DNA from: Kofleriaceae bacterium
GTDB taxonomy: Bacteria; Myxococcota_A; Polyangia; Haliangiales; Haliangiaceae
NCBI GenBank assembly: GCA_046597055.1
Contig: JBKJLC010000293.1
Location: 32,001-96,000 of the forward strand
Reading direction: 5' to 3'
DNA: 64,000 bases
This document shows, piece by piece, positions 29,411-46,642 of the stretch. The notes beneath the pieces are model-generated. The model searched no databases, was not told the DNA's origin, and worked only from the letters and a program-made list of their open reading frames with translations. Numbering within the stretch: the first letter of the stretch is position 1; each line of letters starts with the position of its first letter. A program made the position numbers and the translations under genes.

Positions 29411-31177
<1,767 letters not shown>

Positions 31178-35742: not shown

Positions 35743-35810
35743 CCTGCGCTGGTCGCCTGCACGTGACCGGTGGCGGTCGGCCGGGCGTCGGCGACCGCGG
35801 CGGTGATGCG

Positions 35811-35882
35811 TACCCACGAAGGGAATCGAACCCTCTCCATCGGTTTGAAAGGCCGAGGTCCTGACCACTGGACGACGCGGGC
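35811..35882 (-). tRNA. tRNA-Glu(TTC)
   Basis: Cloverleaf; anticodon loop CTTTCAA; T loop GGTTCGATTCC. Confidence 0.85.
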
Positions 35883-35896
35883 GGTGACAGACGGGG

Positions 35897-35964
35897 TGCC
35901 TCTGGCAGGAATCGAACCTGCTCACCAGGTGTCGGAGACCCGGGTCGGATCCGTCCACAGAGGC
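35897..35964 (-). tRNA. tRNA-Arg(CCG), shortened D arm
   Basis: Acceptor GCCTCTG/CAGAGGC; loop CTCCGAC. Confidence 0.7.
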
Positions 35965-35975
35965 GAGAAACGCGG

Positions 35976-36049
35976 AGCCCACCGACGGATTCGAACCGTC
36001 CTCTCTCCCGTACCAGGGGGGTGTGTCCGACCAGGATCACCAGATGGGC
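35976..36049 (-). tRNA. tRNA-Thr(GGT)
   Basis: Loop CTGGTAC; GGTTCGAATCC. Confidence 0.75.
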
Positions 36050-36062
36050 GTGAGCGTTGCGG

Positions 36063-36135
36063 TCGGGATCGAGAGGATCGAACTCTCCCATTTCGCCGTG
36101 TGAGAGCGACCTCACCCCCAGGTGAGCTGATCCCG
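36063..36135 (-). tRNA. tRNA-Val(CAC)
   Basis: Acceptor CGGGATC/GATCCCG; loop CTCACAC. Confidence 0.75.
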
Positions 36136-36142
36136 ATTTCAA

Positions 36143-36216
36143 TGGAGCACTCGCCCGGATTTGCACCGGGATGACACGGTTTGCAGCCATGCGCCTGACT
36201 CTTCGGCCACGAGTGC
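36143..36216 (-). tRNA. tRNA-Cys(GCA), CCA encoded
   Basis: Loop CTGCAAA; U73; ends TCCA. Confidence 0.85.
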
Positions 36217-36220
36217 GTGG

Positions 36221-36294
36221 TGGTGGACCCGGGGGGATTCGAACCCCCGTCTCTGCTGTGCGAGAGCAGGATCTTGCCGCTGGACGACAGGCCC
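36221..36294 (-). tRNA. tRNA-Ala(CGC), CCA encoded
   Basis: Loop CTCGCAC; G3:U70. Confidence 0.88.
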
Positions 36295-36308
36295 GGAAGG
36301 AACACGAG

Positions 36309-36381
36309 CGGCCCTGACGGGAATCGAACCCGCCTGGATCTCATAGACAGTGAGAGAACGTCACCAGACGTATCCAGGGCC
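36309..36381 (-). tRNA. tRNA-Asp(GTC)
   Basis: Loop CTGTCTA; G73. Confidence 0.8.
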
Positions 36382-36403
36382 GTGAACGAGAGACGAATGA
36401 TGT

Positions 36404-36477
36404 TGGTGGAGTCGGACGGATTCGCACCGTCGTCACTGACATGCCGAGCCAGTGTTCTGCTGTTGAACTACGACCCC
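36404..36477 (-). tRNA. tRNA-Ala(GGC), CCA encoded
   Basis: Loop TCGGCAT; G3:U70. Confidence 0.8.
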
Positions 36478-36481
36478 GGGG

Positions 36482-36554
36482 TCCCGTCGATGGGAATCGA
36501 ACCCACCTGGTACTGGGAGACAGCCAGCTGACGTCACCAGACGTCTCCGACGAG
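36482..36554 (-). tRNA. tRNA-Asp(GTC), second copy, A73
   Basis: Loop CTGTCTC; D arm shared with the 36309 copy. Confidence 0.7.
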
Positions 36555-36564
36555 CAGACAGACG

Positions 36565-36635
36565 TGGAGCTGGAGGGAATCGCACCCCCGTCGCTGGCAT
36601 GTCGGACCAGCATTCTGCTGTTGAACTACAGCTCC
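36565..36635 (-). tRNA. tRNA-Val(GAC)
   Basis: Loop CCGACAT; acceptor GGAGCTG/CAGCTCC. Confidence 0.78.
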
Positions 36636-36639
36636 TCAG

Positions 36640-36711
36640 TCGGAATGACAGGACTTGCACCTGCAGCCTCACCGTCCCGAACGGCGCGTTCTTCTATTGA
36701 ACTACATCCCG
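36640..36711 (-). tRNA. tRNA-Pro(CGG)
   Basis: Loop TTCGGGA; C1:G72, A73. Confidence 0.85.
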
Positions 36712-36814
36712 AGGCGGACGAGGGCCCGACCCGGGGGGGCCGGTCGGACAGGTCCTCGTCCTGTGGAAACATGAGAGCTCGGCCGCAGGCGCCGCCTGAC
36801 GCGAACGTAGTGAG

Positions 36815-36900
36815 CGGAAGGAAAGGGAATCGAACCCTCGACACATGGATCCTGTGCGCGCGATTAGCAGTCGCGGTCCTCGACCAGCCGGACTCCTTCC
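36815..36900 (-). tRNA. tRNA-Ser(GCT)
   Basis: Loop CTGCTAA; long variable arm; G73. Confidence 0.85.
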
Positions 36901-36972
36901 CGAACCGACCCACGACGGACGCTGACTGTCGACCGAGATCGGCAGCCGGGCTCCGGGGTGGGTATCGGTTTG

Positions 36973-37064
36973 CGGAGGGAGAGGGAGTCGAACCCCCAAG
37001 GCATCTCGAAGATGCTCGCGCGGCTTTCGAAACCGGCACCGTCGCCACATCGGCTTGCCCCTCC
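36973..37064 (-). tRNA. tRNA-Ser(CGA)
   Basis: Loop TTCGAAA; long variable arm; G73. Confidence 0.85.
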
Positions 37065-37178
37065 AGATCGATGCCTCACGCGCCACCCTGCTGGCGCCAC
37101 GACCGGGGCCATCACTCCCTGGTCGCGGCGCTCCGCCGCCGCCGCCCACCCGCCGCCACGTGTGTCAACGCGAGAGAG

Positions 37179-37727
37179 TCACGAGGCCAGCTCCCCGTCG
37201 CTCTCGATCTCGCCGGTCCAGTACAAGTAGTCACGCCACGCGTCAGGCATCGACCGCGTGCTGACCCTGATCGTCACCGCCGGCACCCAGGTCGGGCGCG
37301 CCGGCTCCATCCGCAGCTTCATCCCGGCCTCGGCCGGCGTCCGGTTGCCCTTCGATCCGTTGCACGGATAGCAGCAGGTCACGATGTTCTCCCAGGTGGT
37401 CTTGCCGCCGCGGGCACGGGGAACCACGTGGTCGTAGGTCAGCTCCGCCAGCGTGCACTTGGTCGCGCAGTACTGGCACTTGTAGCCGTCACGCGCGTAG
37501 ATGTTCACGCGCGAGAACTTGACGGGCTTGCGGTATCGCCGGAACGCACGGATCAACCGCACGACCGCCGGCACCTTGATGATGAGCGTCACCGCTCGGA
37601 TCTCGGCGTCGTACTCCTCGACCACCTCCACCTTGCCGAGGGTCAGGAGGGTGATCGCCCGCTGCCACGGGATGACCTTGATGGGCTCGTACCCCTGCGA
37701 CAGGAGCAGCGTCGTCGCGTGACTCAT
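37179..37727 (-). CDS. HNH endonuclease inside the tRNA array
   Basis: RDGYKCQYC, TYDHVVPRARGG, WENIVTCCYPCNGSKGN. Confidence 0.93.
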   Translation of the reverse strand: MSHATTLLLSQGYEPIKVIPWQRAITLLTLGKVEVVEEYDAEIRAVTLIIKVPAVVRLIRAFRRYRKPVKFSRVNIYARDGYKCQYCATKCTLAELTYDHVVPRARGGKTTWENIVTCCYPCNGSKGNRTPAEAGMKLRMEPARPTWVPAVTIRVSTRSMPDAWRDYLYWTGEIESDGELAS

Positions 37728-37789
37728 GACGGTCCGTGTTCCTTTCCCCGGTCACTGTCTTTCAGGCGCGCCCCGGTGCCAGCGCGCCA

Positions 37790-37811
37790 TCGGCCCACGA
37801 CGTGTGGGCAA
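37790..37811 (-). promoter_or_regulatory. Ro-site-like bulged-C hairpin upstream of the HNH gene
   Basis: TTGCCCAC-ACGTC-GTGGG[C]CGA. Confidence 0.55.
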
Positions 37812-37824
37812 AAACTGCGTGTCG

Positions 37825-37899
37825 TGCCCTCCGTCGGATTCGAACCGACACTGCCCAGATTCTGAGACTGGTGACTCCTTCCAGTTGGTCTAGGAGGGC
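37825..37899 (-). tRNA. tRNA-Leu(CAG) with short variable region
   Basis: Loop CTCAGAA; variable region only GCAGT; A73. Confidence 0.75.
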
Positions 37900-37900
37900 G

Positions 37901-37977
37901 TGGAGTGATCGACGGGACTCGCACCCGCTAGGACGAGGTTCACGGCCTCGCGCCTGGACGACTTTGGCTTCGATCAC
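37901..37977 (-). tRNA. tRNA-His(GTG), atypical (U73, no encoded G-1), CCA encoded
   Basis: Loop CCGTGAA; acceptor GTGATCG/CGATCAC. Confidence 0.75.
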
Positions 37978-37979
37978 GG

Positions 37980-38050
37980 TCCGCCCGGGAGGAATCGCAC
38001 CTCCGTCGTCCGGTTATCGGCCGGGTGCTCTGCTGTTGAGCTACGGGTGG
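37980..38050 (-). tRNA. tRNA-Ile(GAT)
   Basis: Loop CCGATAA. Confidence 0.75.
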
Positions 38051-38057
38051 GAAAGAC

Positions 38058-38185
38058 TGGGGTGGGTGGCCTGGATTCGAACCTGGCATCTGCGGCTCCC
38101 TGAGAACCCTCTTCTGACGGCCCGGTGACGGGCAAGCTGACGAGGAGGGGCCATAACCGCCGTCCTGCCACTGGACGACACCCAC
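38058..38185 (-). ncRNA. tRNA-shaped Y-RNA-like element A, CCA encoded
   Basis: Acceptor, D and T arms intact; anticodon loop replaced by ~60 nt containing CTTGCCCG-TCAC-CGGGCCG. Confidence 0.75.
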
Positions 38186-38199
38186 GTACGAAGTAGCAG

Positions 38200-38326
38200 T
38201 GCAGGCAGCTGGACTCGAACCAGCGTCACACGCGTTAACACGATAACCATCCAGCGTCGGCCCGCGACCGGGCGAGGTGAGTACAGGACGGATCCACGTT
38301 GCGCTACCGGGCTGAGCTACACCTGC
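38200..38326 (-). ncRNA. tRNA-shaped Y-RNA-like element B
   Basis: Insert with CTCGCCCG-GTCG-CGGGCCGA...GGATGGTTATCG. Confidence 0.75.
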
Positions 38327-38347
38327 GAAGAAACACAACACGAGTCG

Positions 38348-38472
38348 TGTGGACGGCCGGAGTCGAACCGGCGCGTGCGGTTTGCGACGATAACCGACTT
38401 CGACGGCCCGTGACCGGGCGAGGGTTGTGAAGACGAGATCTTTCCGCCGTCCTACCGTTAGACGACGTCCAC
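38348..38472 (-). ncRNA. tRNA-shaped Y-RNA-like element C
   Basis: Insert with CTCGCCCG-GTCA-CGGGCCG...GGTTATCG. Confidence 0.75.
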
Positions 38473-38477
38473 GTGCG

Positions 38478-38605
38478 TGCAGGTGGCTGGATTCGAACCA
38501 GCGGCCAACGGATTGATAATCGATGACCATCCGACATCGGCCCGTCGCCGGGCGAGGTTGTGAAGGACGGGTTTACGTTGCTCTACCGGACTGAGCTACA
38601 CCTGC
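38478..38605 (-). ncRNA. tRNA-shaped Y-RNA-like element D
   Basis: Insert with CTCGCCCG-GCGA-CGGGCCGA...GGATGGTCATCG. Confidence 0.75.
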
Positions 38606-38620
38606 AAAGAAAAACATGCG

Positions 38621-38692
38621 TCTGGATGACTGGAATCGCACCAGCGGCCTCGTGATCCCCGAACACGCGCCCTGCTCCTGAGCTACACCCAG
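38621..38692 (-). tRNA. tRNA-Pro(GGG)
   Basis: Loop TCGGGGA; C1:G72, A73. Confidence 0.75.
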
Positions 38693-38693
38693 A

Positions 38694-38792
38694 TGGGGCG
38701 GGACTTTGGATTCGAACCATGTAGACCGATAACCATCCATCGTTCGGCCCGTTTCCGGGCAAGGGCACTTTGATAGACGGACTCGTCCCGCC
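38694..38792 (-). ncRNA. Y-RNA-like element E without a D arm
   Basis: GGCGGGAC/GTCCCGCC-CCA stem, GGTTCGAATCC, CTTGCCCG-GAAA-CGGGCCGA...GGTTATCG. Confidence 0.7.
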
Positions 38793-38797
38793 AGAAG

Positions 38798-38867
38798 TCG
38801 CAACGGAAGGACTCGAACCTTCACCGGCGCGGATATGAGCCGCGCGTCCTCGCCCGAGGTCGCTGCG
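38798..38867 (-). tRNA. tRNA-Met/Ile2(CAT), small D loop
   Basis: Stem CGCGG/CCGCG; loop CTCATAT. Confidence 0.72.
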
Positions 38868-38868
38868 A

Positions 38869-38939
38869 TGGGGCAACGGCGGGAGTCGCACCCACTGACC
38901 GGCGGGAACCCCGCCGGTCCTCCACGCGAACTCGTTGCC
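38869..38939 (-). pseudogene. Degenerate tRNA-like element (GTT in an over-paired anticodon arm)
   Basis: GGCAACG/CGTTGCC-CCA; T loop GGTGCGACTCC; CCGGCGGG-GTT-CCCGCCGG. Confidence 0.55.
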
Positions 38940-38944
38940 ACGAG

Positions 38945-39011
38945 CACGCCGCCAGAGAATCGAACTCTGCAGTCCGGGGTTGGAATCCAGACTCTTCCCA
39001 GAAGGCGACGC
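38945..39011 (-). tRNA. tRNA-Trp(CCA), shortened D arm
   Basis: Loop TTCCAAC; G73. Confidence 0.65.
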
Positions 39012-39080
39012 AAGTTGCAAGCATCAACATGTCACTTCCACTCCCCTCCAGTTACAGCTCGAGAATAGAAGTGGCGATCG

Positions 39081-39150
39081 TGCCACCGACAGGATTCGAA
39101 CCCGTACCGACGACGTTCGTAGCGTCGCGTCCCATCCTCGGGACGGTGGC
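39081..39150 (-). tRNA. tRNA-Arg(ACG)
   Basis: Stem CGACG/CGTCG; loop CTACGAA. Confidence 0.8.
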
Positions 39151-39152
39151 AG

Positions 39153-39345
39153 ACAGGCAAGTGGCTGTGTTGGAGTGCGCCTTGTTCAGGGGCGCGGCGT
39201 CCAGAGCGCGCGGTTGCCCGTTTACGCTCGTCGACACGCACGCGGCGATCTACGAGAGACCGCCTCGCGCTGGCTCGCATCGGTCGCCCGATGGTCGCTA
39301 CCTTGGGCCCGTTATAGTTACGGTAACCAACACATTCCGGCCCGT
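39153..39345 (-). ncRNA. Y-RNA-like RNA carrying a 23S rRNA H69-H71-like module
   Basis: Termini ACGGG[C]CGG / CTTGCCTGT; inner stem TGTGTTGG/CCAACACA; contains CCGTAACTATAACGGGCCCAAGGTAGCGA. Confidence 0.7.
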
Positions 39346-39349
39346 GACG

Positions 39350-39422
39350 TATCCCTGGGGGGAATCGAACCCGCCATACCTGGTTTGAGAGACCAGTAGA
39401 CTGACCACTGTCTGACAGGGAC
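39350..39422 (-). tRNA. tRNA-Glu(CTC)
   Basis: Stem CTGGT/ACCAG; loop CTCTCAA. Confidence 0.82.
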
Positions 39423-39472
39423 ATCTTCGCGTGGCGCTTGCGCCCAAGGCGCCTCACGCCACGCGATCTTCG

Positions 39473-39545
39473 AGGGCCCGGCGGGAATCGAACCCGCACC
39501 TCGCAGTTTAACAGACTGCCGCTCAGCCAGTTGAGCTTCGGACCC
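39473..39545 (-). tRNA. tRNA-Asn(GTT)
   Basis: Stem GCAGT/ACTGC; loop CTGTTAA. Confidence 0.85.
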
Positions 39546-39617
39546 AGACACGCCACGGTCGTGAGACCGCGGCGCGTGCGTGTTGAGGGCGACTCTCGTC
39601 GTGGCCTGGGCCGAAGC

Positions 39618-41255
39618 CTAGGCGCGGGCGAAGTCGCTGATCACCGGCGGCGTCGCCGTGTCGAAACCGACCACGTCGAGCATGCCGGCGTCGTTCGGGT
39701 CCGCGATCGTGAACCCGTTCGAGGTCATCCCGACCACCACCAGCTTGGCCGGGATGCCGCGCGCCTGTCGATAGGCGCGCAGGGCCTGGGCCGGGTGCAC
39801 GCTCCCGGCCCAGGTCTCGCTGTCCGTGTACACCACGAAGGTGTCCACATCCACCTTGTGCCGCTGCGCCCAGATCATCGGGAGCGCGCAGTCGGTTCCA
39901 CCCATCGGCAGCTTGGCGACCGCCGCGACCACGTCGTCGAGCCGCTGGCGCGGCGAGATCGACAGGGTCGTGATGCCCGACTCGCCACCGCCGTGCATGC
40001 CGCCGTAGCCACCGCTCGCCGCGGTGAAGCCCACGAACGTGTGGTCACGCTCGGTCGCCGCGGTGATCAGCGCCATCGCCGCGCTGCCGACCCGCGGCGT
40101 CAGGCCGGGCACCCCGGCGATGGTGCCGCACGCCATCGAGCCCGACACGTCGAGCGCGAGCAGCATGCGCTTGCCGGCCGGCTCGACCGCCTTGAACGAG
40201 GCGTAGAACGCACCGTCCAGGGCGTCGATGATCGGCGTCACCGGCGTCCAGGTGCCGCTGCCACGGACGCTCTTGCCACCCTGGTAGGTCAGGAGCGCCG
40301 CCAGGACCGCGACCGGGTGGACGCGGGCCTTGGCGATCCGGTTCGCATCACCCAGCCGCGCGACCACGGTGTTGGTCGCGTTGGCACCCGGCGCGAGCAA
40401 GCCCGCACGGGTCATCGTGGCCAGGTTCCGGATCATCGCCGTCATGGGCATGTCGACCAGCAGCGCGTCCCACACGCCGGCGTCGTTCAGCCAGCGCGTC
40501 GGCAGCGTCTCGCGCGGCAGCCGGAACTCGCGCACCAGCGCCGCCACCTCGGCCGCAGTACCGGCCGCCTTCACCGCCTCCATGCCGATCAGCAACCGCA
40601 GCGCCGGGTCGGCGCTCGCGCCATCCGGCACGGTTCCCTTGGTCACCCACGAGAACAGCCGATCGTGCGATGGCGACGCGGCGCGCGGGTGCGCGAGCCG
40701 CAGCAGGTCTCGGTTCGACCAGCCGTCCCGCTGCTGGTACTTCACCAGCTGCAGCGCGAGGTCGGCCGCCGGCTTGTCGTTGAACCAGCCGGCCACCGCC
40801 TTGCGCATGCCACGGCCCCAGCCGCCGAAGCCCTGCGCGTACTCCGCGAAGTGCATGAGGTGAGTGCCGATGCGGCAGACCGTCGGCAGGGCAGCGTAGG
40901 CGCTCTTGCGAGTCGCCTCGTCGCCGAGCTTGGCGGCCAGCGCCAGGGCGAAGATCGCCGGGTCGTTCTTGGGCGCCCGACCCGCCTGCGAGATCTCGGC
41001 GATCCGCGCGACCGTGCGCGGACCGTCGGCTGCCACGCAGCGGACCACCGTCTGGGCAGTCTCGAGCGTCAGCTTCTGCTCGGAGATGTAGTAGGTGCCG
41101 CCCTCGCTACCCAGGATGAGGAAGCGATCGAGCCGCGCCCAGTCGTCGACCGGCCAGGCGAAGCCCCCGGCCAGGTTCGGCACCTGCGCCGTACCCGGGA
41201 TCGGCTGCGACTGCGGCGTCGCCTGCGTCGAGAAGAACTTGGTGAACTTGAACAC
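39618..41255 (-). CDS. rsr: Ro60 / TROVE-domain RNA-binding protein
   Basis: TPQSQPIPG, RLDRFLILGSEGGTYY, KYQQRDGW, AMIRNLATMT, vWA DVSGSM, GGTDCALP, TDSETW; GTG start with GGAGG. Confidence 0.96.
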   Translation of the reverse strand: MFKFTKFFSTQATPQSQPIPGTAQVPNLAGGFAWPVDDWARLDRFLILGSEGGTYYISEQKLTLETAQTVVRCVAADGPRTVARIAEISQAGRAPKNDPAIFALALAAKLGDEATRKSAYAALPTVCRIGTHLMHFAEYAQGFGGWGRGMRKAVAGWFNDKPAADLALQLVKYQQRDGWSNRDLLRLAHPRAASPSHDRLFSWVTKGTVPDGASADPALRLLIGMEAVKAAGTAAEVAALVREFRLPRETLPTRWLNDAGVWDALLVDMPMTAMIRNLATMTRAGLLAPGANATNTVVARLGDANRIAKARVHPVAVLAALLTYQGGKSVRGSGTWTPVTPIIDALDGAFYASFKAVEPAGKRMLLALDVSGSMACGTIAGVPGLTPRVGSAAMALITAATERDHTFVGFTAASGGYGGMHGGGESGITTLSISPRQRLDDVVAAVAKLPMGGTDCALPMIWAQRHKVDVDTFVVYTDSETWAGSVHPAQALRAYRQARGIPAKLVVVGMTSNGFTIADPNDAGMLDVVGFDTATPPVISDFARA

Positions 41256-41261
41256 GGCACG

Positions 41262-41322
41262 CCTCCGGCCCACGCGGTGGGCACTGCTGGTTGGGCTCGG
41301 CCACGCACCATGCGCGGCGAGC
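41262..41322 (-). promoter_or_regulatory. Two Ro-site-like hairpins in the rsr leader, one abutting the SD
   Basis: GCTCGCCGCGCA-TGG-TGCGTGG[C]CGAGC and TGCCCAC-CGC-GTGGG[C]CG-GAGG. Confidence 0.6.
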
Positions 41323-41417
41323 GAGATCTGTAATGAGGAATCGCTTCGCGAAGCGCTCGATGCCTCCCGGCGGCATCGCCGCCGCACCACCGGAGGTGGC
41401 GGACTGGCGAGTCTTCG

Positions 41418-41489
41418 AGCCGGTCGGAGGAATCGAACCTCGTTGGGTCGCTTACGGAACGACTGCTCGCCCAGCGAGCTACGACCGGC
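41418..41489 (-). tRNA. tRNA-Thr(CGT)
   Basis: Loop TCCGTAA; GGTTCGATTCC. Confidence 0.75.
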
Positions 41490-41497
41490 GGAAACTG

Positions 41498-41556
41498 GCG
41501 GACAAGTGGCACTCGTGGGGGTCTGTTATCAGGAGAACCCACGAGCATCGGCCCGC
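41498..41556 (-). ncRNA. Minimal (~59 nt) Y-RNA-like stem
   Basis: GCGGG[C]CGA-T-GCTCGTGGG...CCCACGAGT-GCCAC-TTGTCCGC. Confidence 0.7.
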
Positions 41557-41560
41557 GCAG

Positions 41561-41631
41561 AGCGGCGCGCGGGAGTTGCACCCGCACGGTCAGGGTGGAG
41601 GCCTGGCATGCTGCTGTTACATCAGCGCCGC
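41561..41631 (-). tRNA. tRNA-Gly(TCC)
   Basis: Loop CCTCCAC; U73. Confidence 0.78.
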
Positions 41632-41641
41632 GACACGAAAG

Positions 41642-41712
41642 AGCAGGTGGTGGGAATCGAACCCGCGATCCCGGCATGGCGTACCGGTGTGTCACCACAA
41701 CACTTCACCTGC
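41642..41712 (-). tRNA. tRNA-Gly(GCC)
   Basis: Loop ACGCCAT; U73. Confidence 0.75.
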
Positions 41713-41795
41713 GGCGGTGTGCCTCGAGTGTCCTCGGGGCCACCTGACGGTCGTCGGCGCGCTCGGCAGGGCTTCGCGCGTCGACGAACGCATCG

Positions 41796-41870
41796 TGGGT
41801 CGGGCGGGAATCGAACCCGCGTCGGGGCAGATTAAGAATCTGCTGCAAAGCCAGCGTTTGCTACCGACCC
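41796..41870 (-). tRNA. tRNA-Lys(CTT)
   Basis: Stem GCAGA/TCTGC; loop TTCTTAA. Confidence 0.85.
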
Positions 41871-41899
41871 AGTTGCCGCGCCAGGCGCGGCGAGTCTCG

Positions 41900-41972
41900 T
41901 CCCACCCCCTGGAATCGAACCAGGACCTCTCGGGCTTCAGCCAAGCGCGCAGACCACATGCGCCAGGGTGGG
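41900..41972 (-). tRNA. tRNA-Phe(GAA)
   Basis: Loop CTGAAGC. Confidence 0.8.
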
Positions 41973-42063
41973 GTTGTGCGGTCGCCGCCGACCGCTGGGG
42001 AGCGGGTGACGACGACCTTCCGAAATGGGCGCCCGCGCTACCGGGCGCCCCATCATTCGTCTC

Positions 42064-42080
42064 TTCGGTTGTCAGAGATC
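42064..42080 (-). promoter_or_regulatory. Possible boxA-like antitermination element
   Basis: GATCTCTGACAACCGAA resembles rrn leader boxA-type sequences. Confidence 0.35.
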
Positions 42081-42150
42081 CACCCCGCGCGTCCGTCGGC
42101 CCGTGCGGGCAGACCTCGAGCGGGGCCGCGCCGTTTCATGGGCGCAGCAG

Positions 42151-42224
42151 TACCGGGCCCAGGATTCGAACCTGGATCTGTACGGTTCAGAGCCGTCCGT
42201 CGTGCCGAGTTGGACCAGCCCGGT
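42151..42224 (-). tRNA. tRNA-Gln(CTG)
   Basis: Loop CTCTGAA; GGTTCGAATCC. Confidence 0.78.
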
Positions 42225-42276
42225 GCGTGTCAGTAAGTGCGTCGATCGCCAGTCCCATGACTGACAACGATCGCAG

Positions 42277-42361
42277 TGGGGCGCCCAGGTTTTGAACCTG
42301 GCGGGTCGCGTGCGACGGCGGCTTTACAGGCCGCCCCGTCTCCATAGCGGTCTATCGCCCC
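42277..42361 (-). tRNA. tRNA-Tyr(GTA), first gene of the array
   Basis: Loop CTGTAAA; long variable arm; A73. Confidence 0.82.
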
Positions 42362-42384
42362 GAGGGTGCTGCCGGAACGGCAAC

Positions 42385-42420
42385 GAGAAAGGGCCACCTG
42401 GGTTCGTCCCGGGTGGCCCT
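42385..42420 (-). terminator. Terminator/attenuator-like hairpin upstream of the array
   Basis: AGGGCCACCCGGG-ACGAA-CCCAGGTGGCCCT followed by TTCTC (short U tract). Confidence 0.55.
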
Positions 42421-42450
42421 GTTCACGGAGCTTGAGAGAGTGCTCTCGAG

Positions 42451-42645
42451 CTAGGTGGGAGGGGCCCCCCTGGGATCCTGACCGCCGCGGACGGCGCGAT
42501 TCGCGAGACCGAAGATCTCTTCGATCTTCAGGCACTTGGCGGCGAAGCTGGACGTCAGACACCAGCTCAACTGCGCGGAAACGCGCCCTTGCGGCGAGCC
42601 AGATGGCATCGCATAGGCAAGGTGATGGAGCGAGGTGGTGTTCAT
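42451..42645 (-). CDS. Putative 64-aa leader peptide ending ...DPRGAPPT
   Basis: ATG 42645; stop ~30 nt before the hairpin; no homology evidence. Confidence 0.4.
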   Translation of the reverse strand: MNTTSLHHLAYAMPSGSPQGRVSAQLSWCLTSSFAAKCLKIEEIFGLANRAVRGGQDPRGAPPT

Positions 42646-43837: not shown

Positions 43838-46642
43838 GTGCCCGCGCGCTACCTGATCGGCGTCGATCTCGGGACGACCAACACCGCGGTCGCCTACGTG
43901 GACACGCGCGCGACCGACCCACGCGTGAAGGTGTTCGAGGTCGTGCAGCTGGTTGCCCCCGGTGAGGTCGCCCCTCGCCGGCAGCTGCCATCGTTCCTGT
44001 ACCTGCCGGGCGAGCACGATCTGGCGCCTGCCGAGACCGCGCTGCCGTGGCGACCGGTCGGCGCCGCCGGCGACAACCGCATCGTGGTCGGCGAGCTCGC
44101 CCGTCACCAGGGCGCGCGCAACCCGTCGCGGATGATCGCCTCGGCCAAGTCCTGGCTGTGCCACCCGGGCGTCGACCGCAAGGCCGCCATCTTGCCGTGG
44201 GGCGAGGGCAGCGGACCGCGGCTGTCGCCGGTGGCCGCCCAGGCAGCGATCCTCGCGCACGTGCGGGCGGCCTGGGACGACCTGATGTCCGGGGAACCGG
44301 ACAGCCAGTTCGTGGCCCAGGACGTCGTGGTCACCTGCCCCGCCTCGTTCGACGAGGCCGCCCGCGAGCTGACCCAGGAGGCGGCCGCGCTGGCCGGCCT
44401 CGAGCGGGTGGTGCTGCTCGAGGAGCCCCAGGCGGCGTTCTATGCCTGGATCGATCGCCACCACAGCCGGGCCCGCACGCTCGCGCCCGGCGAGCGCGTG
44501 CTGGTGTTCGACGTCGGCGGCGGGACGTCGGACTTCACGCTGATCACGGTCGACGCCGACGGCGGCTTCGAGCGCACCGCGGTCGGCGATCATCTGCTCC
44601 TCGGTGGCGACAACGTCGACCTGACCCTGGCCAAGCTGGTCGAGCAGCGGCTCACCGCCGATGGCGGCAAGAAGCTCGATGCCCTCCAGTGGCACGGTCT
44701 GGTCCACGCCTGCCGGCTGGCCAAGGAGACGCTGCTGGGCGACGCCGCCCCGGCCGAGGTGCCGATCACCGTCGCCAGCCGCGGCTCGCGCTTGATCGGC
44801 GGCACGCTGCGCGACCAGATCACGCGCGCGGAGCTCGAGCGGGTGCTGTTCGACGGCTTCTTCCCGGTCGCGACCGCCGACGCCACCCCGGTCCGCGGCC
44901 GCGGCGGCCTGCAGGAGATGGGGCTGCCGTACGCGAGCGACCCGGCGGTGACGCGGCACCTGGCGTCGTTCCTGGCCCGCCACGGCGCGGCCCGGGTCGA
45001 CGCGGTGCTGTTCAATGGTGGCGCCATGACTCCAGTCGCGCTGCGCGCGCGCGTGCTCGGGCAGCTGGCGGCGTGGCAGCCCGATGCGCCACCCCCGCGC
45101 GAGCTCGAGGCGATCGCACCCGAGCTGGCGGTCGCCGTGGGCGCCGCCTATTACGGGCTGGTCCGGCGCGGCCTGGCGACCCGCATCCGCGGTGGTACTC
45201 CGCGCGCGTTCTACATCGGCGTGGCGCGCGTGGCGGCGTCGGGCGGCGTCGCCGCGGCGCGGGTCGAGACCCACACCGCGGTGTGCCTGGCCGGCAAGGG
45301 TCTCGACGAGGGCACCACGGTCGAGCTCGACCGCGACTTCGAGCTGGTGACCAACCGTCCGGTGCGGTTCCGGTTGTACTCGTCGAGCACGCGGACTGAC
45401 CCGCCCGGCACGCTGGTGCCGATCGGCGATGGCCGCGCCGACACGATCGACGACGGCTCCGATCTGCTCGAGCTGCCGCCGATCGTCACGGTGCTGCGCG
45501 CGCGCGGCAAGAGCGCGGTCACGGTCCGGGTCCAGGCGACCGTCACCGAGCTGGGCGCGGTCGAGATCTGGTGCCACGACGTCGCCGATCCGACCGCGCG
45601 CTGGCGGCTATCGTTCGACGTACGCTCGGGTGGCTCGCCGGCGGCCGACGACGACACCGCGGCCAGCGCGGCGCCGCACCCGCGCATCGACGAGGCCAAG
45701 GCGCGCGTGACCGACGGGTTCCGCGGCGACCCCGGGCTGCTGGCGCCGCTCACGCGCGAGCTCGAGGAGATGCTCGAGGCGCGGCGCGACGAGTGGTCGA
45801 TGCACGCGACCCGCGCGCTGTTCGACGCCCTGGCCGACGTGGTCGAGACCCGGCGTCGGTCGGCCGATCACGAGCAGCGCTGGCTCGGCCTGGCCGGGTT
45901 CTGCCTCCGGCCCGGCACCGGCGCCCCGCTCGACGCCTGGCGGGCGCGCCAGATGTGGGGCGTGTTCAACGAGGGGCTGGTCCACGGCAAGACCGAGGCG
46001 TCGCGGCTGGCCTGGTGGATCGTGTGGCGGCGGATCGCCGGCGGCCTCATCCCGGGCCAGCAGGAGCAGATCTACGACCGGCTGGCGACGCTGCTGTTGC
46101 CGAGCGCGCGCCAGCAGAAGAAGCTGAGCGAGATCAAGCCGTCGAAGCAGGAGCTCGGTGAGATGTGGCGCGCGGTCGCCAGCCTCGAGCGCATCCCGGT
46201 CGCGCACAAGCTGAAGCTCGGCGACGAGCTGATGCGGCGGATGGAGACCCGCAAGGGTCGCGAGGACGCTGTCCACCTGTGGGCGCTCGGCCGGATCGCC
46301 GCGCGGGTACCGCTGTACGGGCCGCTCAACACGGTCGTGCCGGCGTCGAAGGCGGCGGCGTGGCTCGACCAGCTGCTGGTGTGGGACTGGCCGGAGCCCG
46401 ACAAGGTCGCCTTCTCGCTGGCGCAGCTCGGCCGGCGCACCGACGACCGCACCCGCGAGCTCTCGGAGCCGCTGCGCGCGCGCCTGGCCGCCTACCTGCG
46501 CGGGCAACCCGGCGGCGACCGCGCCGCGATCCTGGTCGAGCAGGTGGTCGCGCTCGAGGCCCGCGAGGAGCGGGTCGCGCTCGGCGACACGCTGCCGGCC
46601 GGCTTGCGGCTGATGGTCGACGACCCGCCGCCCCCGGCGTGA
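43838..46642 (+). CDS. Hsp70-family protein with C-terminal extension (DUF3731-like)
   Basis: GVDLGTTN, EEPQAAF, DVGGGTSD; tail with WLGLAGFCLRPG, WWIVWRRIAGGL, GDTLPAGLRL. Confidence 0.9.
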   Translation: MPARYLIGVDLGTTNTAVAYVDTRATDPRVKVFEVVQLVAPGEVAPRRQLPSFLYLPGEHDLAPAETALPWRPVGAAGDNRIVVGELARHQGARNPSRMIASAKSWLCHPGVDRKAAILPWGEGSGPRLSPVAAQAAILAHVRAAWDDLMSGEPDSQFVAQDVVVTCPASFDEAARELTQEAAALAGLERVVLLEEPQAAFYAWIDRHHSRARTLAPGERVLVFDVGGGTSDFTLITVDADGGFERTAVGDHLLLGGDNVDLTLAKLVEQRLTADGGKKLDALQWHGLVHACRLAKETLLGDAAPAEVPITVASRGSRLIGGTLRDQITRAELERVLFDGFFPVATADATPVRGRGGLQEMGLPYASDPAVTRHLASFLARHGAARVDAVLFNGGAMTPVALRARVLGQLAAWQPDAPPPRELEAIAPELAVAVGAAYYGLVRRGLATRIRGGTPRAFYIGVARVAASGGVAAARVETHTAVCLAGKGLDEGTTVELDRDFELVTNRPVRFRLYSSSTRTDPPGTLVPIGDGRADTIDDGSDLLELPPIVTVLRARGKSAVTVRVQATVTELGAVEIWCHDVADPTARWRLSFDVRSGGSPAADDDTAASAAPHPRIDEAKARVTDGFRGDPGLLAPLTRELEEMLEARRDEWSMHATRALFDALADVVETRRRSADHEQRWLGLAGFCLRPGTGAPLDAWRARQMWGVFNEGLVHGKTEASRLAWWIVWRRIAGGLIPGQQEQIYDRLATLLLPSARQQKKLSEIKPSKQELGEMWRAVASLERIPVAHKLKLGDELMRRMETRKGREDAVHLWALGRIAARVPLYGPLNTVVPASKAAAWLDQLLVWDWPEPDKVAFSLAQLGRRTDDRTRELSEPLRARLAAYLRGQPGGDRAAILVEQVVALEAREERVALGDTLPAGLRLMVDDPPPPA

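Follow-up and report, generated by a model that had tools for sequence, protein, structure and literature searches.

What does an operon that joins a full set of tRNA genes to Ro60 and a group of Y RNAs do for the uncultured myxobacteria that carry it, and to what would its Y RNAs bring Ro60? The question was raised by a 64,000-nt stretch of a Kofleriaceae bacterium genome (assembly GCA_046597055.1, contig JBKJLC010000293.1, positions 32,001 to 96,000, forward strand), hereafter the window. The tRNA-bearing region lies on the minus strand at 35810-42361, and through a leader open reading frame (ORF) and an attenuator the unit reaches at least 42645. Two protein genes are contained in the array: rsr, encoding Ro60, and an HNH_5 endonuclease gene. 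The locus places known parts (tRNA array, Ro60, HNH) in a conserved operon with RNA parts that were not found described, including a Y RNA whose effector domain is a miniature of 23S ribosomal RNA (rRNA) helices H67 to H71. We consider it probable that this is an attenuator-gated translation-recovery operon, transcribed in the manner of an rRNA operon and long resident in the Kofleriaceae.

The comparison set consisted of 81 Ro60 loci, namely 80 relatives and the window. Counts for well-covered loci refer to 32 myxobacteria-like relatives with at least 2 kb upstream and at least 3.5 kb downstream; 24 loci from other groups and 24 short loci were left out of these counts. At least eight chained tRNAs were found in 48 of the 81 loci, and at least 15 tRNAs in 25 of the 32 well-covered loci. 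The well-covered loci contained an HNH gene in 31 cases, the leader motif in 29, Y RNAs with the arms in tRNA order in 27, and the Y RNA with the 23S mimic in 22. An earlier sequence-only reading of the window had proposed a translation-stress operon that combines backup tRNAs with modular Ro60 ribonucleoproteins. This co-conservation supports that proposal, and the Y-like RNAs do co-occur with rsr in related arrays.

A Y RNA with a 23S rRNA-like domain

The rRNA genes of the host were not assembled, and its contigs gave no 23S match; the genes of relatives therefore served as the rRNA reference. In the 23S-mimic Y RNA a terminal Ro-type stem encloses the rRNA-like domain. Its H69-H70 segment begins at position 1907 of an annotated 2,903-nt E. 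coli 23S copy (L157:701-3603), which we take to be atypical around H68 and which was used for numbering only; 1907 of that copy is presumably 1908 in the usual numbering. When all non-coding spacers of 48 arrays were mapped on 23S, 16S and 5S rRNA, a single contiguous k-mer peak was obtained, at H69-H70. Sliding profiles at H69-H70 exceeded 30 of 30 controls, and the profile of the whole mimic scored 32.9 bits against 23S rRNA, with 0 of 40 controls as high. A 12-nt core was present in 27 of the 80 related loci, always directly after the 5' strand of the Ro stem, and a profile search placed the mimic in 37 of the 81 loci.

The rRNA elements follow one another in permuted order: the tip of H69, H70, an analog of H71, a capped H67, a shortened H68, and then the strand completing the base of H69. 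The H71 analog was capped by a GNRA loop in 30 of 30 copies. Across 30 sequences, 93.7% of cells were paired in the 23S-type structure, versus 31-47% in slid controls, and two-sided changes occurred at 16 of its 31 pairs, a result given by 0 of 500 shuffles. The long-range pair equivalent to 1923:1907 took five forms (UA 10, GC 7, AU 5, CG 4, UG 3). On its own, RNAalifold found the Ro and second stems, the hairpin of H71 and some of the H68-base pairing. Because the order is permuted and the changes are compensatory, the mimic is not a passive fragment.

The mimic retains H69, the stem pairs of H71 (1947-1949 with 1957-1959, in 23-30 of 30 copies), and the strands of H67 and of the H68 base, where positions 1831, 1832, 1834, 1835 and 1837 were kept in 25-29 of 30 copies. 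Distal H68 and the 1937-1945 linker were dropped. In published descriptions, the contact of H69 with h44 is bridge B2a, that of H71 with h44 is B3, and distal H68 (1845-1895) forms B7a (PMC3592451); B2b is made via the H68 base and B2c via the H67 backbone (PMC11040002). The helices kept are those of bridges B2a, B2b, B2c and B3, and that of B7a is absent, so that, judged by its sequence, the mimic presents the central 30S-facing surface of the 50S subunit. From the retention of this surface we infer docking on free 30S subunits, to which we give slightly less than an even chance.

Within the same operon, the mimic might be not a dock for the 30S subunit but a bait for whatever binds the H69/H71 region: HflX, RRF, the H69 pseudouridine synthase, rRNA-cutting toxins or H69-binding antibiotics. 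HflXr is described in the cleft between H69 and H71, and RRF as breaking B2a at H69 (PMC11040002). U1911 was retained in 26, U1915 in 29 and U1917 in 25 of 30 copies, and Y RNAs are reported to tether Ro60 to proteins (PMC4201824). The retention of the H67 and H68-base strands exceeds what an H69-binding protein would need, however, and no such factor was found among 37 neighbouring proteins from 13 loci. A bait for 50S-binding proteins or drugs is held as a tentative second choice, and some role other than docking or bait is slightly more doubtful still.

In a metagenome scan 34 matches to the mimic were obtained, several of them redundant; none runs on as 23S rRNA, and rsr lay alongside in 19. 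Two Armatimonadota loci also carry the mimic. An exact-pattern search across the phylum matched 4 of 401 genomes, which makes the RNA rare outside the family among the genomes searched. Match L150 was the reverse strand of a 23S gene and not a mimic, the matched text of L151 was the same as that of L150, and the match in G343 had a Y-type linker. No mimic was found among 58 viral Ro60/HNH loci; one viral pattern match was attributed to chance. Five metagenome contigs (L132, L138, L139, L142 and L147) carry the mimic without rsr, with at most one tRNA within at most 4 kb, beside unrelated genes. For mimic RNAs standing alone, no recurrent partner gene besides Ro60/HNH was seen in the 37 of 66 ORFs scanned.

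Leaders of ribosomal-protein operons that mimic rRNA work in cis, as part of the mRNA, and bind one ribosomal protein. Unlike these leaders, the RNA described here has a small-RNA gene of its own and a Ro handle, and copies an RNA-RNA bridge surface. Seven further spacer profiles were compared with rRNA. Six were without a match, and one, from a spacer absent from the window, gave a weak, motif-anchored match to the 23S A-loop (1/40 controls) that was not counted. In 11 related loci, including L024, L026, L032, L037, L047, L055, L060, L064 and L066, a structured spacer RNA not present in the window follows tRNA-Gly(GCC), sometimes in tandem, and contains a 23S A-loop (H92) motif; a second rRNA mimic is possible there. 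The loop of the short Y RNA was considered as a peptidyl-transferase motif and rejected, not being kept in relatives.

Leader with a candidate attenuator and an rRNA-operon-like frame

The unit opens with an upstream ORF (uORF) followed by a terminator-like hairpin. In 41 of 56 loci a search for similar leader hairpins gave a match, misplaced in two of them; a simple U-run scanner did not detect the hairpin of the window. In 29 of 32 loci an open frame no shorter than 48 codons ended 20-35 nt before the hairpin, and a looser version of this geometry occurred at 343 of 3,240 random places. The last 48 codons of 22 of 27 non-redundant leaders contained at least 18 amino-acid types. The corresponding frequencies in controls were 7% (nucleotide shuffles), 2% (other frames) and 27% (Ro60 windows), and the leaders held 18.4 types versus 15.2 in shuffles. 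These comparisons indicate that the leader is selected for amino-acid diversity.

Across 38 loci, the 5' arm of the hairpin paired most strongly with a segment 34-38 nt upstream (mean -13.4 kcal/mol at the 36-nt peak versus about -6 to -8 further upstream), and the best antiterminator window lay at this fixed distance in 27 of the 38. The anatomy is that of the whiB7 type: the uORF ends just before the terminator, and its end pairs with the 5' arm of the terminator. In the whiB7 system, inefficient translation of the uORF is reported to favour the antiterminator, and the M. smegmatis uORF to contain every amino acid but Cys (10.1101/2023.06.02.543512). The whiB7/wblC attenuator and the present leader are alike in the near-complete amino-acid uORF and the antiterminator logic, a likeness of mechanism. 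The whiB7 attenuator gates a transcription factor, whereas here tRNAs for 20 amino acids would be gated directly. The conserved uORF attenuator would give the induction foreseen by the sequence-only reading a concrete mechanism. A ribosome reaching the end of the uORF would cover the antiterminator strand, the terminator would form and the array would stay off; a scarce tRNA, or ribosomes slowed by drugs or damage, would leave the antiterminator free to form and allow read-through into the array. A regulon sharing this control was considered and rejected: a single match to the attenuator hairpin pattern was found in the genome, and no such leader was seen before three rtcB genes.

Further into the unit, the motif at 42078-42061 was the most conserved non-tRNA spacer motif, and its pattern was found in 14 of 17 genus genomes, with zero viral matches. 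It matches the leader of the rRNA operon (rrn) 188-221 nt ahead of 16S in three relatives (profile E values of 1e-5 to 5e-4), and it also occurs at two contig-end rrn-like leaders of the host genome. Compared with mature rRNA, the pre-Phe element was not significant (13 of 40 controls as high); it matches the rRNA leader instead. The putative label boxA follows from the position of the motif in the rrn leader.

The tail of the motif is complementary to a strand lying 5,648 nt further downstream; of the 21 inverted repeats in the region, this one alone is perfect. Helix scores of at least 13 were reached with the own partner in 18 of 27 loci, versus 15% with swapped partners and 2% in shuffles. 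In rRNA operons, boxA is described as the nucleation site of a Nus complex, which carries the leader to the complementary strand so that RNase III can act (PMC8632103), and the array resembles such a leader in having the motif of its relatives' rrn followed by a strand that pairs kilobases downstream. The loop of an rRNA operon contains 16S rRNA, whereas the loop here contains tRNAs, Y RNAs and two protein genes, with Nus and RNase III use predicted. Genes for a NusB-family protein and for PNPase are present in the genome. The motif, probably copied from the host rRNA leader, would recruit an rRNA-type Nus complex, and the leader-trailer helix would close the array into a loop for processing.

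Ro60, Y-like RNAs and tRNA genes of the array

Domain scans agreed with the earlier assignment of the two protein genes, giving a TROVE and vWA_Ro60 protein and an HNH_5 protein. The window Ro60 matched PF05731 (E = 3.8e-45) and PF25045 (E = 7e-64), had its DxSxS motif at residue 369, and scored 595 bits against the NCBIfam Rsr equivalog, under the cut-off of 900. Its closest relatives, at no more than 88% identity, were in Kofleriaceae and related myxobacterial genomes; the query matched 15 of 16 genomes at genus level, 19 of 36 at family level and 5 of 24 beyond it. A quick tree of 88 Ro60 proteins united the 55 array-type rows in one clade (SH-aLRT 98) that included none of the 10 viral rows. 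The third-codon-position GC content (GC3) of rsr and HNH was 0.94, matching host genes, and lower GC was limited to the RNA genes of the array.

The presence of Ro60 in 15 of 16 congeners, the host-like GC3 and the single myxobacterial Ro60 clade without viruses identify the locus as a long resident and not a fresh insertion; in the sense of a recent insertion, the integrated island of the sequence-only reading was not supported. That reading's remark that no integrase or transposase is nearby agreed with the scan, in which none occurred among 10 window proteins, the rest of the window being unscanned. The edges of the array had zero common 11-mers, and neither an integrase, att repeats nor foreign composition was found at the locus. 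Upstream neighbour genes were common to only 8 related loci, and the flanks vary among family members. Viral relatives of the HNH gene lay among at least five co-oriented tRNAs in 18 of 48 loci, concentrated in the best matches, and because of this an older phage-type origin of the locus is plausible. Ro60 inside tRNA arrays recurs across several phyla. Five loci from Dormiibacterota, Chloroflexota and Gaiellaceae (L078, L088, L091, L092 and L100) contained rsr with 20-33 tRNAs, three of them with rtcB, and neither the 23S mimic nor the leader motif.

A Ro-type hairpin abuts the rsr Shine-Dalgarno sequence in 48 of 56 loci, versus 0.1% of control windows, and its conservation at the ribosome-binding site suggests autoregulation by Ro60: when free of Y RNA, the protein would repress its own translation at this Y-like hairpin. 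After the rsr stop, at 39546-39617, two alternative conserved elements occur across relatives (22 and 18 loci), neither with an rRNA match. A GC-rich hairpin with a loop motif conserved in about 25 loci follows HNH at 37075-37160.

Seven Y-like RNAs of four designs were described by the sequence-only reading, and folding gave the same count: one long and one short RNA with a terminal Ro stem, four in tRNA order and one in tRNA order without a D arm. All seven are on the minus strand and no more than 1.6 kb from rsr, inside the 4 kb, same-strand range used for Y RNAs. The five tRNA-order RNAs run through the acceptor, the D arm (missing in one), a loop-capped Ro helix, a YUAY-like motif, the T arm and the acceptor again. 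A script search returned 85 candidates, 65 of which, in 41 loci, had a fully paired 7-bp acceptor, a state seen in 5.9% of shuffled strands; two or more of the rows are apparent false positives, and of the five window copies the script recovered three. In an alignment of 31 tRNA-order copies 97.7% of cells were paired, and all 7 of 7 acceptor pairs had two-sided changes. The bulged Ro-type helix was paired in 98.9% of cells in the 23S-mimic alignment and in 100% in the tRNA-order alignment.

Bacterial Y RNAs such as YrlA (RF02553; PMC4201824; 10.1101/312249) likewise lie near rsr on the same strand, several per locus, and share with the present RNAs a bulged Ro-type helix and, after it, a YUAY-like motif; the five tRNA-order RNAs also have D and T arms (only the T arm in one of them). 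In most copies here the motif ends without the AA of the YrlA consensus. None of the RNAs reached the 69-bit gathering score of the Rfam YrlA model, the best score being 31 bits for a stretch spanning two adjoining genes. YrlA is described with a loop-closed acceptor and ends in the Ro stem (10.1101/312249), whereas five RNAs here have the reverse permutation and a free 7-bp acceptor, and one has an rRNA domain replacing the tRNA domain. M. smegmatis YrlA is reported to be opened by RNase P and to gain CCA (PMC4201824), and candidate YrlA RNAs are listed for Sorangium and Plesiocystis (PMC4201824 supplement). The tRNA-order RNAs could be matured and charged; in form they resemble an unpermuted precursor that could have given rise to YrlA. 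In 14 loci, including L024, L028, L033, L045, L064 and L070, a conserved spacer RNA between tRNA-Trp and tRNA-Pro starts with a loop-capped Ro hairpin and has a small two-helix domain; it is without an rRNA match and absent from the window. Two folded spacers (36712-36800 and 39012-39078) had no relatives among 585 spacers, and the first, with a Ro-like 5' motif, may be a decayed Y RNA.

The 29 tRNA genes and one pseudo-tRNA counted in the earlier reading were recovered: all are on the minus strand, and the 29 cover 20 amino acids if CAU is read as Met. ARAGORN called 25 at default settings, Ile(GAU), Trp(CCA) and Val(CAC) were called at a relaxed threshold, and His(GUG) was identified from sequence; the Ile, Trp, Val(CAC) and His tRNAs all folded, with their loops located. 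Elsewhere in the assembly 41 housekeeping isoacceptors were called, which makes the array tRNAs supernumerary. Where the earlier reading counted four tRNAs with an encoded CCA, three are clear (Cys and two Ala), and His could be added only by disregarding its G-1:C73 pair. Scarcity of CCA was rejected as a special feature, because most housekeeping tRNAs of this genome likewise lack it.

The anticodon loop differed from that of the housekeeping isoacceptor in 20 of the 25 ARAGORN-called window tRNAs. Position 33 was other than U in 182 of 802 array tRNAs from related, non-independent loci, versus 1 of 45 housekeeping calls. A long variable arm was absent from 80 of 85 array tRNA-Leu. Both array tRNA-Asp (36308-36381 and 36480-36554) have U37, as in most related arrays, and the housekeeping copy has A. 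These loops are compatible with an anti-ribotoxin or anti-phage depot, in which altered-loop tRNAs would escape anticodon nucleases and resupply the cell, tRNA-like and rRNA-like Y RNAs would soak up toxin nucleases and Ro60 would act only as a stabiliser. Evasion of nucleases has been proposed for phage tRNAs (PMC10264068), and a sponge role has been raised for the Anabaena array (PMC8421152). The leader, however, would answer any slowdown and not cleavage alone; the loop changes may mean independence from modifying enzymes or relaxed selection, and no nuclease was identified. We regard the depot as rather unlikely, though it overlaps with the translation-recovery operon and does not exclude it.

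Features of the array and its leader, in groups (window coordinates)
Feature	Coordinates	Strand	Basis or remark
Leader uORF, 64 codons, all 20 amino acids	42451..42645	-	Stop 31 nt before terminator
Antiterminator strand in last uORF codons, complementary to terminator 5' arm	42461..42470	-	Duplex energy, nascent folding
GC-rich terminator-like hairpin, pyrimidine tail	42382..42419	-	Leader comparison
rrn-leader motif, boxA position, two hairpins before	42061..42078	-	Profile match to rrn leaders
Long-range helix, 5' strand	42051..42064	-	Only 100% complementary pair of 21 inverted repeats
Long-range helix, 3' strand	36389..36402	-	Complementarity, covariation
Y RNA, effector domain a circularly permuted 23S H67-H71 miniature	39151..39346	-	rRNA comparison, covariation
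29-nt H69-H70 segment	39295..39323	-	27/29 identical to 23S rRNA of relatives
rsr (Ro60), 545 aa, GTG start, TROVE and vWA, DxSxS motif	39618..41255	-	Domain profiles
Ro-type hairpin abutting rsr Shine-Dalgarno, candidate operator	41262..41284	-	48/56 loci
HNH_5 endonuclease, 182 aa, two CxxC motifs, intact HNH motif	37179..37727	-	Domain profile
Ro-type hairpin in HNH 5' untranslated region	37790..37811	-	28/43 HNH-bearing related loci, without background control
Short Y-like RNA with terminal Ro stem	41497..41556	-	Spacer comparison, folding
tRNA-order Y-like RNA without D arm	38696..38792	-	Folding; same design in L035, L038, L074
tRNA-order Y RNA 1, open acceptor, loop-capped Ro helix in anticodon arm	38478..38605	-	Pattern script, covariation
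tRNA-order Y RNA 2	38348..38472	-	Pattern script, covariation
tRNA-order Y RNA 3	38200..38326	-	Pattern script, covariation
tRNA-order Y RNA 4, encoded CCA follows	38062..38185	-	Folding, covariation
tRNA-Tyr(GUA), Gln(CUG)	42150..42361	-	ARAGORN
tRNA-Phe, Lys, Gly(GCC), Gly(UCC), Thr(CGU); short Y RNA between last two	41417..41972	-	ARAGORN
tRNA-Asn, Glu(CUC)	39349..39545	-	ARAGORN
tRNA-Arg(ACG), Trp, pseudo-tRNA, Met(CAU), Pro(GGG); D-armless Y RNA among them	38620..39150	-	ARAGORN, relaxed calls, folding
Pseudo-tRNA	38869-38939	-	Folding
tRNA-Ile(GAU), His(GUG), Leu(CAG, short variable arm)	37824..38050	-	ARAGORN, folding
13 tRNAs: Ser x2, Pro, Val(GAC), Asp x2, Ala x2, Cys, Val(CAC), Thr, Arg(CCG), Glu(UUC)	35810..37064	-	ARAGORN, relaxed calls, folding

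Outside the array, Hsp70/DnaK-like genes lie at some distance on either side (29411-31177 and 43838-46642), one of them with DUF3731.

A probable translation-recovery operon and its alternatives

Overall, the products encoded by the proposed translation-recovery operon are 29 tRNAs with anticodon loops unlike those of housekeeping tRNAs, Ro60, the HNH protein and seven Y RNAs. The Y RNAs would serve as ribosome-facing adapters for Ro60, five of them being tRNA-shaped with real acceptor ends. The 23S-mimic Y RNA would most likely cap free 30S subunits and bring to them Ro60 together with a partner, for instance PNPase or RtcB, so that the subunits are protected, repaired or turned over. The proposal in its fullest form has a Ro60-borne RNA copy of the 50S joining face acting as a stand-in large subunit on free 30S, tRNA-order Y RNAs matured as tRNAs and perhaps aminoacylated, and all of these on one rRNA-style transcript under a pan-amino-acid sensor; taken as a whole, it is put forward as a speculative possibility.

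Several observations weigh against the operon as read here. For the mimic, RNAalifold alone missed the H69 tip and the 1922-1924 long-range pairing, both of which were drawn from rRNA. The 5' half of the H69 tip was absent from 3 of 30 aligned copies, a point against the B2a contact in the proposed docking. The mimic was not found in 10 of the 32 well-covered loci, and 15 of the 34 metagenome copies were without rsr on the available DNA, many on short contigs. For the leader and frame, the best antiterminator window lay elsewhere in 11 of 38 loci, the full-length leader fold favoured the terminator whether or not a ribosome was present (the nascent fold alone favoured the antiterminator), and the long-range helix scored below 13 in 9 of 27 loci. 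A sigma-70 promoter scan found no promoter. Two ice metatranscriptome runs shared 6-7% of words and gave only contigs of relatives, uninformative on transcription; one metatranscriptome contig spans the terminator, may be of DNA origin and was not used as evidence. The related genomes in all counts are non-independent samples.

Among known systems, the L-type tRNA arrays are close in gene content. The Anabaena trn operon with the HNH gene all8564 is an example (PMC8421152), and the present locus, like it, has more than 25 co-oriented supernumerary tRNAs (29 in the window) and a linked HNH gene. Stress induction of that tRNA array and its HNH gene is reported (PMC8421152), and induction by translation stress is predicted here. 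The Anabaena operon is described as controlled by a direct-repeat promoter, whereas a uORF attenuator is found here, and L-arrays as patchy and horizontally spread, (PMC8421152), whereas this array, by the Ro60 query, is kept in 15 of 16 congeners, with 19 of 36 genomes at family level and 5 of 24 beyond. No mention of Ro60 or TROVE was found in the parts of that account available (PMC8421152).

The Salmonella rsr-yrlBA-rtcBA operon is also alike, with rsr, more than one Y RNA and a stress operon linked to tRNA damage (PMC7790460). The sequence-only reading had pointed to the Salmonella locus; in an RNA-repair operon of this type, tRNA fragments would activate RtcR in the service of RtcB. In its favour, rsr and Y RNAs belong to that Salmonella operon (PMC7790460; 10.1101/312249), and the genome has rtcR adjoining rtcB and, in all, four RtcB matches. 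These are on other contigs (C264, C68, C181 and C210); by eye, the C264 copy is divergent from rtcR and followed by an RtcA-like ORF. The locus itself, unlike the Salmonella operon, is without rtcB, rtcA and rtcR and is controlled differently. In every myxobacterial locus examined, the flanks contained neither rtcB nor rtcR; rtcB was found in the flanks of 5 loci only, all non-myxobacterial. The array also owns its attenuator, whose hairpin class and antiterminator were found once in the genome. An RNA-repair operon is very unlikely. Least likely of all is a selfish phage-type tRNA array mobilised by HNH and now silent cargo, its 23S-like segment a functionless captured fragment: although the closest viral HNH relatives lie in tRNA arrays, it has been proposed that L-arrays spread along with homing endonucleases (PMC8421152) and the flanking genes vary, a passive fragment is excluded by the permuted order and compensatory changes, the leader shows selection for amino-acid diversity, the operator and long helix are conserved, and 15 of 16 congeners keep the locus.

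In total, the anatomy and the stress-operon reading given by the sequence-only reading were supported, and an island in the sense of a recent insertion and an Rtc link were not; the leader, the 23S mimic, the rrn-like frame, the rsr operator and the tRNA order of the Y RNAs were newly found here. The literature searched yielded neither an rRNA domain nor tRNA order in any Y RNA, and no tRNA array containing Ro60. For the leader and the rrn-like frame, at which little of the search was aimed, absence from print is not established.

The effector bound by bacterial Y RNAs is called unknown in published accounts (PMC4201824; 10.1101/312249). A Y RNA with a recognisable 23S cargo names a candidate target and makes the question testable with purified subunits, and, as a natural RNA of 195 nt that stands by itself, the mimic offers a model for the H67-H71 junction. 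A 20-amino-acid leader ahead of a 20-amino-acid tRNA set would provide a simple feedback logic for cryptic tRNA arrays. In these bacteria, one chromosomal operon would link all of these elements to a single signal, slow translation.

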